Below, one piece after another: positions 5,034-8,971 of a DNA stretch of 64,000 nt. The first letter of the stretch is position 1; every line of letters begins with the position of its first letter. Source of the stretch: Phormidesmis sp. (lineage in GTDB: Bacteria > Cyanobacteriota > Cyanobacteriia > Leptolyngbyales > Leptolyngbyaceae); the NCBI GenBank assembly GCA_965248535.1, contig CBDFJR010000005.1, positions 1,696,001 to 1,760,000 on the forward strand. Reading direction: 5' to 3'. The position numbers were made by a program, and so were the translations under genes. The notes beneath the pieces are model-generated. The model was not told the origin of the DNA, did no database searches, and saw nothing but the letters and a program-made list of their open reading frames with translations.

Positions 5034-6587
5034 CTAGTCGTTGTCGTCTTTGACGCTTTTGATAATGCGAGCCAGATCCATCTTTTCATCAACAGCGATG
5101 CGAGTGGGCGAACCGCTAATAATCCGCTCAAAGTTGCGGAACGAATCTTTGATATCCGGGCCTTGAGCGCTGATCGTATATTCACGAATGCCCTTATCAT
5201 GCCAAGAACCGCGCATTTTAAAGACGTTGAGCGCCCGCGACATCTCACCGCGAATCTCAACATATTGCAGCATGATAATCGTGTCAGTGATCGTCGAAAT
5301 ATGAGAGTCGGTGATCGAATGCGATCCCATAAACTGATCGGTCGTGTTGGTGAAAAATCCTGTGATTTCTTCTTGTTTGGCAAAGCCCGTCACCCCAATC
5401 ACAAACTGCCGAAAGGCGTTGTTGCTCACGCCGCGAGCTAGGGCAGAAAGCGAATCGATCGCAATCCGCGATGGCTTAAATTCGGCAATTTCTGACTTGA
5501 TAATCTGCAAATGGTCTTCTAGCCCTGCCGACTCAGGATAGGCGCAGATGATTTTGAGCAAGCCTTTTTGCTCTAAATCCTCAAAGTCGATGCCCCACGA
5601 GTAAGCGTTGCGAGAGAGTTGAGCGCGAGACTCTTCATAGGCAAATAGGATGGCCCGATCGCCCCTCTGACACGCCTCCTGCAAAAATTTGCTGACCAGC
5701 AGAGTTTTTCCGGTTCCGGTTGCCCCCGTGGTGAGAATGATCGAGTCTTTAAAGAATCCCCCACCGCACATGGTATCCAGCGTGGTCACGCCCGATGAGA
5801 CGCGAACATTGGACGATCGCTGAGTCAGGCGCATCGCCCCCAGCGGGAAAATATTGATCCCCTGATTGGTGATCGTGAAGGGATATTCACCCTTCATGTG
5901 GGTGGTGCCGCGCAGTTTGAGCACTTCGACCGTTCTTCTGCGCCGCTCACCTTCTAAAACGTTTCGCACAATCACCACGTTGTCAGAGACAAACTCTTCT
6001 ACGCCAAACCGGGCAACTGGGCCATATTCATCAATGCGCTCGGTGGTCATAATTGTGGTGGCACCCACCTGTTTGAGCCGCGCCACTAGCCGAAAAATCT
6101 CTCGCCGCACGACCCCCGCCGCCTCATATTGCTGAAACACAGCCGTCACCGAGTCGATCGACACTCGCCGCGCCTTATATTTGCGAATCGCGTACTGAAT
6201 TCGCTCAATCAGGGCAGAAAGATCAAAGTTGCCGACGACATCTTGACCTTCGGGATCGGGCGATGCGTCGAGAATAAACAGCTTGCCTTCGTCGATAAAC
6301 TTCTGAAGATCCCACCCGAAGCTCAAGGCATTTTTGATGATGTCTGCGGGCGATTCTTCAAAGGTGACAAAGATGCCTGGCTCGTCAAACTGCGTGATCC
6401 CGTTATAGAGAAACTGGGCTGCAAACAGAGTTTTTCCAGTCCCAGATGTGCCGCTGATCAGCGTCGTGCGGCCGATGGGCAGCCCACCGTGACTGATGTC
6501 GTCAAAGCCCTCAATCAGGGTACGAATTTTTTGAACGCTTGACAGGTCTACTTGATTGCGTGATTCGCTTTGATTCGTTGGATTCAT
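5034..6587 (-). CDS. kaiC: Circadian clock protein KaiC
   Basis: Two RecA-like domains (GTSGTGKT, GATGTGKT) and the phosphosite context DSHISTITDT. Downstream of kaiA-kaiB. Confidence 0.99.
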   Translation of the reverse strand: MNPTNQSESRNQVDLSSVQKIRTLIEGFDDISHGGLPIGRTTLISGTSGTGKTLFAAQFLYNGITQFDEPGIFVTFEESPADIIKNALSFGWDLQKFIDEGKLFILDASPDPEGQDVVGNFDLSALIERIQYAIRKYKARRVSIDSVTAVFQQYEAAGVVRREIFRLVARLKQVGATTIMTTERIDEYGPVARFGVEEFVSDNVVIVRNVLEGERRRRTVEVLKLRGTTHMKGEYPFTITNQGINIFPLGAMRLTQRSSNVRVSSGVTTLDTMCGGGFFKDSIILTTGATGTGKTLLVSKFLQEACQRGDRAILFAYEESRAQLSRNAYSWGIDFEDLEQKGLLKIICAYPESAGLEDHLQIIKSEIAEFKPSRIAIDSLSALARGVSNNAFRQFVIGVTGFAKQEEITGFFTNTTDQFMGSHSITDSHISTITDTIIMLQYVEIRGEMSRALNVFKMRGSWHDKGIREYTISAQGPDIKDSFRNFERIISGSPTRIAVDEKMDLARIIKSVKDDND

Positions 6588-6723
6588 AAAAATTGTTTTT
6601 CAAACTGGAGTAACTCTCTAAAGCTGAGGGCAACTCCGCTAACTTTGTTTATCTCTTTTTGCGGAATACCCCATCCGTCTATGCGGCGGGGATGGATAGC
6701 AACGGGGCGACAGCCCCAGTCTC

Positions 6724-6842
6724 TTAGGGCAATGAACGCAGAAATTCGCGCACAATGTCTGTCTTGGTTCGTTTTGTCTTCTTGGCATAGCGCTCAAGCT
6801 TTTTCATCTCTTCCTCCGGGACTCGAGTTGTTTCTCAGCCAT
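6724..6842 (-). pseudogene. Frameshifted CopG/ribbon-helix-helix protein carried by the element
   Basis: ATG GCT GAG AAA CAA, then a shifted frame TRVPEEEMKKLERYAKKTKRTKTDIVREFLRSLP*. Length 119 nt, not a multiple of 3. Confidence 0.7.
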
Positions 6843-6845
6843 GCT

Positions 6846-6865
6846 GTGTACTCATGTGGTACACT
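6846..6865 (+). promoter_or_regulatory. Extended -10 (TGnTACACT) overlapped by an inverted repeat GTGTAC-N7-GTACAC
   Basis: TG at 6857-6858 and TACACT at 6860-6865. The palindrome lies between the RHH start and the non-coding segment. Confidence 0.5.
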
Positions 6866-6871
6866 CATTCT

Positions 6872-7110
6872 AGTGGACAAGGTAATCAACCACTTAAAAA
6901 ACCTTGCTGTCGAGAGACACGCTGAACCTTGAAAATTGAATCTATGCGGTTCTACTGCATTTTTCTAGACTCCCCCTCGCAGTAGGTAAAAGATTCAGAG
7001 GAGCTAGACAAACAGCATTTTGGGGCATATCTGCTTCAAACTTAAACAGGACTTGCGGCGCTCAGTGCTGGAGGAGGGTTTCCCGACCTAGGCAACTGAG
7101 TAAGAAGCGC
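6872..7110 (+). ncRNA. Putative structured non-coding RNA with a BoxB/BoxA-like leader inside the IS605-type element
   Basis: Hairpin TGTC-GAGA-GACA followed by GAACCTTGAAAA (6924-6935). Crossing stems TGAATCT/AGATTCA and TCTAGACTCC/GGAGCTAGA. Further hairpins at 6944-6960 and 7019-7040. Confidence 0.5.
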
Positions 7111-7263
7111 AAATAGGGTAGGGCATACCCGAATTAACGCTTGGGGAGAATCCCACCTCTGGGCCAGAGACTGCAAGGACTCTAGTTTAAGTGGTTTCGT
7201 TGAGCCAAGAATCCCCATCCGCCTAGGCGGGGGGGAGTGTCAAGTCGTGAGATCGGGAATTTT
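7111..7263 (+). ncRNA. TnpB omega-RNA (reRNA)-like scaffold plus ~20-nt guide taken from the flank
   Basis: GGGTAGGGCATACCC hairpin, ACGCTTGGGGAGA, and ...CCAAGAATCCCC...GGGGAGTGTCAA, as at the 3' ends of cyanobacterial tnpB genes. The guide would be GTCGTGAGATCGGGAATTTT. Confidence 0.7.
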
Positions 7264-7578
7264 CTAACCATCAATTTCCTCTTCGCGGAGTTCTTCATAG
7301 AGAAGATCAAGCCCGATTAAGACTTTTTCACGATCGGAGAGGTCACCAATAATTTTCCGAACTGGGGGGGGCAAAATTTTGGCCAGCGTCGGTGTAGCTA
7401 AGATCTTATCCTCTTCGGCCAACTGCGGATTTTTGAGCACGTCAATCACTTTCAGCGCATAGACCCCTTGAAACTCTTTTTCTAAGATATTGTTCAACGT
7501 CTTGAGGGCCCGAATCGAGTTGGGCGTGTTTCCGGCAACATAGAGCTTGAGAACGTAGGTTTTCTTTAGTGGACTCAT
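7264..7578 (-). CDS. kaiB: Circadian clock protein KaiB
   Basis: [14 protein letters not shown]...[24 protein letters not shown]. Confidence 0.99.
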
Positions 7579-7619
7579 AATTTAGCTGTGAGCGATGAGC
7601 GATCGGCAACTCGCAAATT

Positions 7620-8543
7620 TTAAGCCTCTCTGGGAATCGATCGACGATACATTTCACACAGATGCGCGATCGTATCAATGAGAGTCAATCGATAGTCGAG
7701 CAAAATTTCTTCACTGCGCCCCTCTAATTTTAGCTGTTTAGCAAATTCATCCATCAACTCCATGTGGGTTTCGACGATTTGAGCGACGGGGATATCGGCA
7801 AAGAAAATCGTATTCACAAAATCGTCAATTTTCTGATTCAAACCACTATCATCGACAAAATAACTGAGCACGATGACTCGATAATGATCGCGCAGTTGCG
7901 CTAAAAGCTGTTCTCGTTCAGCGTGGGGCAGATAGCGCAAAAACGTTTTAGGGTTGCGCTTGTAATAGACTCCTAAATAGCCCAAACGCTCTTTTAGCTT
8001 CTCGGTCAACCGTCGCTGATGCAGCAGCAAAAAGTTTTGGGTGCTCAGGTCAGTGGTTAGATCTGGTTTAGAAGACGCATTGGGCAGACGGCAAGAGGGC
8101 GAGAGATTGAGAAACTCGTCGATCGCGTCATCGACAAACTCAGCTATCTCCTCCAGTTTGTCGAGCGCTAATCGAACTTCGGCTGAATGATAGAGAAAGA
8201 TTAGCTGCGCTTCTAGATCAGCGACTCCAGAGACAGGGGTTGAGGTTGCGTCTAAAATAACGGTCGGCAGCAGCGTCGCCTGGTTGTGAAGCCAGGCAAT
8301 CAGAGCAGGCAACTGAGGGCCGTCTTGCAAGATTAAACAGTCAAGCCGCTGGCTCTGTTGCTCAACTAGCAAAAAAAATGCCTCTTTAGACTCTGGCATG
8401 ACAACGGTGTAGCGATCTTCTTGAGGGGTGCCGGGGACATCATGGCTCAGGGCTTGCTGCACCGAGCGCGCCAACTCCCTCGAGTTGAGAAAAACGCAAA
8501 CAAAGAGCTTGGACTGCTGAAGGTTAGAAAGTGAGGCTGTCAA
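7620..8543 (-). CDS. kaiA: Circadian clock protein KaiA (full length, with N-terminal pseudo-receiver). Start uncertain: TTG 8543, ORF extends to 8624
   Basis: KLKERLGYLGVYYKRNP and LLDYRLTLIDTIAHLCEMYRRSIPRE. Confidence 0.96.
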   Translation of the reverse strand: MTASLSNLQQSKLFVCVFLNSRELARSVQQALSHDVPGTPQEDRYTVVMPESKEAFFLLVEQQSQRLDCLILQDGPQLPALIAWLHNQATLLPTVILDATSTPVSGVADLEAQLIFLYHSAEVRLALDKLEEIAEFVDDAIDEFLNLSPSCRLPNASSKPDLTTDLSTQNFLLLHQRRLTEKLKERLGYLGVYYKRNPKTFLRYLPHAEREQLLAQLRDHYRVIVLSYFVDDSGLNQKIDDFVNTIFFADIPVAQIVETHMELMDEFAKQLKLEGRSEEILLDYRLTLIDTIAHLCEMYRRSIPREA

Positions 8544-8971
8544 GGCTAAATAGACCCACGGGATGAAAAAGACGGTGAAGTGATCTGCTGACGGGATCGA
8601 GCGCGATCGTAGAGTTGAACCCAAGTCTCTAGGAGGTCAAGAATCTTTATAGCAGGATTTTTGATCAACTTTAATATTTATTTAACAATACGGCGTTTTG
8701 TTAACAATCGTTACAAGATACGAATTTAAAACGGTGAGCAATGCAGCAACTAGACTCGGCACCTTTATGATTTAAGTTCTCATATTCGGGTTTGTTGCTG
8801 TTTATTTCAGCCTTGCAATAATTCAGCTTTTCCTAAAACCTGCCTTATAAAATAGAATCTCAAATCCGGTTTTTCTTTCCCGCTTCGATGTCAGCACAGA
8901 ACTGTCGAATCATTGGTCTATAGGCATTCGGTGCTGTTTTTCGGTCTATCTCACAGTTCGGCGGGTATTTC

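Follow-up and report, generated by a model that had tools for sequence, protein, structure and literature searches.

We analysed a window of 64,000 nt from Phormidesmis sp. (GenBank assembly GCA_965248535.1, contig CBDFJR010000005.1, positions 1,696,001 to 1,760,000 of the forward strand) and describe here a small gene-less transposable element that lies between the clock genes kaiB and kaiC and probably carries a single structured RNA as its cargo. Pfam searches of the open reading frames of the window identified kaiC (5034-6587), kaiB (7264-7578) and kaiA (7620-8624), all on the minus strand. The stop codon of kaiB is separated from the start codon of kaiC by 676 bp. This spacer is short and unbroken in five of the six genus relatives with a match, and we therefore conclude that the spacer of the window carries an insertion of 591 bp (6653-7243). 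At the empty site the relatives have TTTGTTTAC, and the window has TTTGTTTAT at the same place. The clock cluster kaiA-kaiB-kaiC (5034-8624) is split by the element between kaiB and kaiC; an RNA promoter of the element is directed antisense into kaiB, and a broken gene in its left part is directed at kaiC.

The insertion is a non-autonomous element of the IS200/IS605 type without a working protein gene. It starts directly 3' of a TTAT target-adjacent motif (6649-6652, plus strand) and terminates at 7243 in GAGTGTCAA. Its left end (6653-6735, plus strand) contains a subterminal imperfect palindrome (~6669-6695), which resembles a hairpin at the right end (7213-7235) in the same orientation; other copies of the element also have a matching palindrome pair of their own. 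No transposase or nuclease gene was detected inside the element (no TnpB similarity below E 0.01 by tblastn), the sole gene being a broken ribbon-helix-helix (RHH) gene of 41 aa. The genome contains 11 PF01797 (Y1 transposase) matches, which are candidate sources of TnpA for mobilization in trans. A preliminary description of this DNA had framed the feature as 6846-7243; this frame missed the left 190 bp (6653-6845) with the left end and the broken RHH gene.

The 3' part of the element (7113-7243, plus strand; 131 nt) is, judged by its sequence relatives, a TnpB omega-RNA domain that derives from the 3' end of tnpB. A covariance model (R2; 129 positions, 36 pairs) that we trained on this domain in 27 members of the family matched the window copy, including the right-end hairpin and the terminal GAGTGTCAA, with 134 bits. 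The match (7113-7243) stopped exactly at the element boundary, leaving the flank as the predicted guide position. In the whole genome, R2 gave 23 matches at E up to 1. Five of these are the copies of the family (128-134 bits), 13 lie directly 3' of tnpB zinc-ribbon matches (PF07282), five of them strong (57-98 bits, E 3e-11 to 3e-22), and the other five are found in other gene-less elements. An autonomous relative (L021) carries a homologue of 7114-7243 with 71% identity at the 3' end of its tnpB gene. This homologue spans the last tnpB codons and finishes at the same GAGTGTCAA; the tnpB gene of L021 is itself frameshifted. The helices of the omega domain (helices 11-14) were 86-99% paired in an alignment of 29 whole RNAs, and 19 of their 22 pairs had changed on both sides.

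Given the known layout of TnpB omega-RNAs, as described in PMC10055086, the guide would be the flank read from the right end (7244-7263, plus strand), which lies antisense to the final bases ahead of the kaiB stop codon. Potential partners in the genome are the 28 tnpB matches together with the 11 Y1 transposase matches, one of which adjoins the best-scoring tnpB-linked omega domain. Further gene-less elements with omega-type 3' domains were observed in the same genome (G000), at C2:933559-933757 and C2:598364-598562 and at C2:1750526-1750643 and C5:377354-377473; in one pair, a -10 box of its own is combined with a different 5' RNA part of ~230 nt, and another pair consists of minimal carriers of ~130 nt. 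A cargo of promoter plus RNA seems to recur among the elements of this genome.

Upstream of the RNA lies an extended -10 promoter element, TGGTACACT (TGn plus -10 box; 6857-6865, plus strand). Among 86 distinct upstream sequences of homologues, 83 had a TAnnnT box at most 17 nt upstream of the start of the RNA model, compared with 16 of 86 in a control window. The commonest start of the box was 8 nt before the model start, and the TGn extension was present in 51 sequences. The conserved position of the -10 box thus leads to a predicted transcription start near 6872, as the preliminary description had proposed. By eye only, an autonomous tnpB element at C5:1039044 in this genome has a similar -10 and start region.

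The first ~140 nt of the RNA form, according to comparative sequence analysis, a conserved structured leader comprising a hairpin, a boxB/boxA-like site and a pseudoknot. All helices are on the plus strand. The 5' hairpin P1 pairs AGTGG (6872-6876) with CCACT (6890-6894) and has a conserved loop; in 100 homologues it was 96.6% paired, with four of five pairs changed on both sides. The boxB-like hairpin P2 (TGTC-GAGA-GACA, 6908-6919) has a GAGA loop and was 87.4% paired in the same 100 homologues, with four of four pairs changed on both sides. The boxA-like 12-mer GAACCTTGAAAA (6924-6935) lies 4 nt downstream of P2. It is followed by the pseudoknot domain (6937-7008), in which P3 (TGAATCT 6937-6943 with AGATTCA 6991-6997) encloses P4 (CTACTGC 6952-6958 with GCAGTAG 6979-6985), each being 98-99% paired; P4 had not been named in the preliminary description. 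The P4 loop (6964-6978) pairs with the strand 6998-7008, TCTAGACTCC (6964-6973) being matched to GGAGCTAGA (7000-7008), and this pairing crosses both P4 and P3. Further downstream are a variable linker hairpin, P7 (7019-7040), which is missing in some homologues (helices 8-9 were 71-82% paired), and P8 (7053-7112), with four of five pairs changed on both sides and a nested repeat (7058-7107) in its loop.

The fold was strongly favoured over displaced pairings in three alignments. In the 29 whole RNAs, 88.6% of the cells were paired, compared with 32-45% when the partners were slid, and 49 of 75 pairs had changed on both sides. The corresponding values were 94.1% versus 32-45% and 19 of 34 pairs for 27 leaders, and 96.2% versus 27-46% and 22 of 34 pairs for 100 leaders. 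The observed covariation score was reached by none of 500 shuffles in each of the three alignments. The alignment of 100 leaders was made on the nested helices alone, so the pseudoknot pairs were not used for aligning; nevertheless, the two pseudoknot helices were 96.5% and 92.1% paired in it, with five of 11 pairs changed on both sides. In a subfamily (L036, L057), the pseudoknot strands are replaced by other sequences that are, by eye, again complementary. The junction bases GGUUCU and GGUAAAAG were invariant among the aligned leaders. Paired columns contained 135 G-U cells and 33 A-C cells, and this excess indicates that the fold is specific to the plus strand. The columns of the right-end hairpin were only 49.7% paired in the alignment of 29 RNAs, in which they are poorly aligned.

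The proposal, made from the letters of the sequence, of an ordered RNA unit with a TnpB omega-RNA at its end was borne out by covariation and by the R2 match, and the unit is conserved. Each motif named in that proposal was found in its place when the sequence was read, its extended -10 element proved to be conserved, and both of its crossing stems, whose covariation had been suggested as a check, covaried in the alignments of 27 and of 100 leaders.

The leader appears to be new. Scans of the window and of six loci against Rfam 15 yielded no match at gathering scores, in agreement with the earlier suggestion of an undescribed RNA, and a scan at E up to 10 gave only a chance C/D-box match and no ribozyme, intron or HEARO family. 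No description of the leader was found in searches of the literature on TnpB and omega-RNAs, PATEs and miniature inverted-repeat transposable elements (MITEs) of the IS605 type, of which supplements or Extended Data could hold one. Two possible sources of the leader were considered and rejected. Decayed tnpB sequence in 6870-7110 was dismissed because the 26 TnpB frames of this genome, used as tblastn queries, gave a best E of 0.26 in that interval. An origin as the 5' untranslated region of an autonomous tnpB gene was discarded because the leader model, R1, had no match in that region of L021 (best E 1.1, filters off); despite the absent match, a similar nested hairpin and loop pairing can be seen there by eye. 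The statement that no tnpB remnant is present therefore stands for 6870-7110 and fails from ~7113 on, where the sequence is the counterpart of the 3' coding end of the L021 tnpB gene.

The leader is widely distributed. In a BLAST search with 6870-7057, 28 of the 401 genomes from the class had a match, representing 22 of 169 genera, and a search with R1 found the leader in 22 of 151 genomes; in the genome studied here, R1 matched the five copies of the element only. The exact core pattern occurred in at least 117 stretches, 80 of which were examined and formed the basis of all locus counts from the pattern scan; all 80 are from cyanobacteria of many genera. In 76 of these 80 loci, the leader is followed, at a distance of about 70-260 nt, by an omega domain in the same orientation; the other four are interrupted by contig ends. 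None of the 76 judgeable loci contains tnpB between leader and omega domain, and the loci derived from BLAST (39 entries, 32 distinct) likewise show the leader followed by the omega domain without tnpB between them. Among 19 further, weaker R1 loci, 12 had an omega-domain match after the leader (E up to 0.1), and no TnpB-sized frame was present after the leader in the 16 of them whose frames were listed. A single frame of 357 aa follows a weak R1 match (E 0.0013) and is, by eye, unlike TnpB. Family members measure 301-426 nt and are too short for tnpB. We conclude that this is a long-lived and stable RNA-only lineage and not a recent deletion, the 3' third nevertheless being of tnpB 3'-end descent. 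In one locus (L029; G002:C93, 349-1758), an insert of ~2.1 kb was observed between leader positions 69 and 70; it contains a frame of 470 aa that resembles, by eye, a group II intron reverse transcriptase.

Relatives of the RNA are represented in RNA libraries. Three RNA-library studies, of ice, a microbial mat and biocrust, contain contigs of relatives that cover 6872-7223; these contigs show presence only, without start, end or strand. The summed word depth was hundreds to thousands over 6872-7223, with little or nothing over 6564-6871, of which the uncovered part 6564-6651 does not count as evidence. Several of these contigs skip the nested repeat (7057-7109).

In the 5.03-Mb genome, the stretch 6870-7215 has four further copies with 91-95% identity, and the five copies of the element are spread over two contigs with unrelated flanks. 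Three of the four other copies have a common left part and right-end hairpin, both unlike those of the window copy; these three also start after TTAT and finish in GAGTGTCAA. Over 43 nt, the left end of the window copy shares 86% identity with that of a tnpB element at G000 C5:249882 (region C5:249780-250000), which is otherwise unrelated and whose left end is typical of a different TnpB clade. The combination of a foreign-type left end with the RNA core of the family indicates that the RNA module moved between element chassis. Across homologues, the left ends upstream of the promoter are of several unrelated types. At the other end, the right-end hairpin of the copy L003 has its loop reverse-complemented relative to the sister copies L002 and L004, with the stem retained.

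The broken RHH gene (CopG-type; 6724-6843, minus strand) is divergent from the RNA promoter. Its residues 8-41 are 85% identical to an intact 41-aa open reading frame of locus L011 (tblastn), which matches Pfam RHH_1 with 25.8 bits (cut-off 20.5). In the window the gene is frameshifted, with an ATG at 6843 in another frame. We rejected the idea that the RHH gene belongs regularly to the family, as it occurs in three loci (window, L011 and L043) and in none of the 80 loci of the pattern scan. An intact RHH gene with 45% identity is located at G000 C5:1856253-1856378, divergently upstream of an intact tnpB frame of 435 aa. Since RHH genes diverge from the RNA promoter here and from tnpB elsewhere, the RHH protein may have an accessory regulatory role in some TnpB elements. 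The nested repeat in the loop of P8 (7058-7107) is a palindromic sequence of ~50 nt, of which many related genomes have free-standing copies, on either strand, and this genome has one more (C5:460117-460169); most homologues of the RNA lack the repeat.

The window 12-mer GAACCTTGAAAA is identical to the boxA of cyanobacterial 16S-23S spacers as given in PMC8461337, an identification already made in the preliminary description; the consensus of the family is one base off. It occurs five times in the genome, every time inside a copy of the element. The three rrn operons of the genome contain a hairpin, a spacer of 3 nt and a 12-mer with one (spacer) or three (leader) differences, followed by similar bases, and the layout of the element, with P2 as the hairpin, matches this arrangement. 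A simple copy of an rrn leader was rejected, as no rRNA lies near the other four copies and the exact 12-mer is absent from the rrn operons of this genome. Two NusB matches were found in the genome. A boxA upstream of CRISPR arrays provides a precedent for guide-RNA loci (Stringer et al. 2020, cited in PMC7862264). Under the explanation that we prefer, the boxA-like site would most likely act as a Nus-type site.

Several known systems share parts of this architecture. IS200/IS605 elements that lack genes but encode omega-RNAs to be used in trans are already known as PATEs (Meers et al. 2023, PMC10055086). Like the element studied here, PATEs have end hairpins, no transposase or nuclease gene, a right-end omega-RNA that needs TnpB in trans and several copies per genome. 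In contrast to them, the element has a conserved promoter and a covarying leader of ~140 nt before the scaffold, and no such leader was found in what that paper describes of PATEs. The idea of an undescribed RNA-only cargo consequently applies to the leader, for which no known description was found, but not to gene-less omega-RNA carriers as such, which are in print as PATEs. The tnpB-linked omega-RNAs of this genome and of L021 have sequence and helices in common with 7113-7243 (57-98 bits; 71% identity in L021), but they overlap C-terminal codons of tnpB, whereas the element has no reading frame and its helices vary freely by compensatory change. With the rrn boxB-boxA region, as presented in PMC8461337, the element shares a hairpin, a short spacer, the same 12-mer (window) or a one-base variant of it (consensus), a promoter and an untranslated RNA; it differs in lying outside an rRNA operon, in a motif that may pair with the P1 loop and in the putative nature of NusB/S10 binding. 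The boxA of CRISPR arrays, as reported through PMC7862264, is similar in placing a Nus-type site before a guide-RNA locus for full-length transcription, but it is tied to Rho termination and long arrays, whereas this genome has no Rho match and the RNA is only ~380 nt long. IStrons of the IS605 and IS607 types (10.1101/2023.11.20.567912) combine a structured RNA on the left, a group I intron, with an omega-RNA on the right. According to that source they keep tnpB and a recognized ribozyme, in contrast to the element, which has neither tnpB nor an Rfam intron match.

We propose that the cargo of the element is one non-coding RNA of ~370-390 nt, whose leader promotes its production and whose omega domain uses TnpB in trans, and we estimate the probability of this explanation at about 0.7. 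Transcription would start near 6872, and the leader would ensure that this RNA, untranslated and highly structured, is produced, most likely because its boxA-like site recruits the NusB/S10 elongation complex of the host. The pseudoknot would fold instead of a competing terminator-like hairpin, and RNA polymerase would continue through the scaffold and the right end into the flank, which would thereby become the guide. TnpB from autonomous relatives in the same genome would bind the 3' domain in trans and, after TnpA-mediated excision, would cut the emptied site, so that the gene-less element is restored by recombination. A bolder version, in which the leader is an RNA machine, either a nut-like site combined with a pseudoknot/terminator switch or a small ribozyme, would make the element a member of a hyperparasitic lineage of guide-RNA-only transposons across cyanobacteria that controls or processes its own guide and borrows TnpB and TnpA; this we regard as speculative and rather improbable.

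A number of observations weigh against the proposed explanation. A simple sigma-70 scan predicted no promoter at the locus, a scan that does not model extended -10 sites. One of the RNA-library contigs extends upstream of the -10 box, and read-through or DNA carry-over is thus possible. The window copy, with its nested repeat and broken RHH gene, may be decaying. With R2, the tnpB-linked omega domains scored 57-98 bits and the family 128-134 bits, so cross-use of TnpB is putative only. For the relaxed boxA pattern GAACCNNGAMAA, the genome has 31 occurrences where ~19 are expected, and the motif alone is therefore weak. No match to the Rho RNA-binding domain was found in the genome, which is 99.76% complete, and a control genome of Synechococcus elongatus likewise had no Rho match; this removes the usual rationale for a boxA on an untranslated RNA. 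Because of the missing Rho match, the argument of the preliminary description that Nus/BoxA antitermination protects long untranslated RNAs does not carry over directly. Moreover, the boxA-like core ACCUUG is invariant, and each of the 27 aligned sequences has a P1 loop complementary to it; its conservation is therefore possibly structural.

The same complementarity leads to a different view of the leader, as a real RNA module in which the likeness to boxA is structural and the site is not bound by Nus factors; the module could then be a 5' stabilizer, a folding or processing handle or a handle for TnpB loading. We consider this possible, although doubtful. It is favoured by the P1 loop (AAGGU and variants), which can pair with the boxA core by Watson-Crick or G-U pairs throughout the alignment, by the invariant junction bases GGUUCU and GGUAAAAG and by the missing Rho match. 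However, as ACCUUG does not vary, there is no compensatory change able to test the pairing with the P1 loop, and the layout of hairpin, spacer and 12-mer is the same as in the boxB/boxA of the rrn operons of this genome. The leader could also be a switch, in which a terminator-like hairpin competes with P4 and the pseudoknot and makes guide output conditional on a protein or ligand. A terminator scan indeed found an alternative hairpin (6944-6960) followed by a U run (6944-6964 in total, plus strand) that has one strand in common with P4, and this hairpin was 91.2% paired in 26 distinct sequences, compared with 26-59% when the partners were slid. Nevertheless, a switch is unlikely: just one of the seven pairs of the alternative hairpin has changed on both sides, the pairing mostly reflects G-U tolerance of invariant G and U, the stem is weak, the U run is interrupted in most homologues and the covariation is far stronger for P4 and the pseudoknot.

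Less likely still is a self-cleaving or processing RNA that releases the 5' end of the omega-RNA. TnpB omega-RNAs need a defined 5' end, and a compact pseudoknot with invariant junction bases would suit such a function, but no Rfam ribozyme matched at E up to 10 and no processing site was visible in the RNA-library contigs. The roles suggested for the 5' domain in the preliminary description, among them a ribozyme, a TnpB decoy and a stabilizer, are thus hypothetical. We find it very improbable that the element is a plain, decaying deletion derivative whose 5' part is a neutral leftover of the 5' untranslated region or coding sequence of tnpB. Although the 3' domain is clearly derived from tnpB and the -10 and start region looks, by eye, like that of the autonomous tnpB element at C5:1039044, changes in the leader preserve structure across many genera, tnpB is present in none of the 76 loci, 6870-7110 shows no protein similarity (best E 0.26), and R1 had no match in the tnpB 5' untranslated region of L021 (best E 1.1) and in this genome matched only the five copies. 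The absence of tnpB from all judgeable loci and the compensatory changes across genera also uphold the view of the preliminary description that the element is more than a simple deletion derivative. The least probable explanation is that the conserved folds work at the level of single-stranded DNA in the course of transposition and not at that of RNA. According to PMC10055086, it is the single-stranded top strand of IS200/IS605 elements that moves, with end hairpins that function as DNA; a G-T bias on the same strand would be in line with this. However, the conserved -10 box lies immediately upstream of the folds, and relatives are abundant in RNA libraries. Furthermore, we know of no internal DNA folds that are required for IS200/IS605 transposition.

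Under the preferred explanation, a single non-coding RNA with a production-promoting leader and a TnpB-dependent omega domain, the element has implications at several levels. For the strain itself, the splitting of the kaiBC operon by this copy is possibly relevant. The leader is a candidate for a new Rfam family and could be a naturally occurring cassette for expressing TnpB guides in cyanobacteria. Gene-less carriers of omega-RNAs are usually regarded as debris of tnpB elements. Here, promoter and leader are kept by compensatory change across many genera, and selection therefore apparently acts on the expression or maturation of the guide RNA itself. Should the boxA-like site be functional, Nus-type control would extend from rRNA and CRISPR arrays to the guide RNAs of transposons, in a host without a Rho match.

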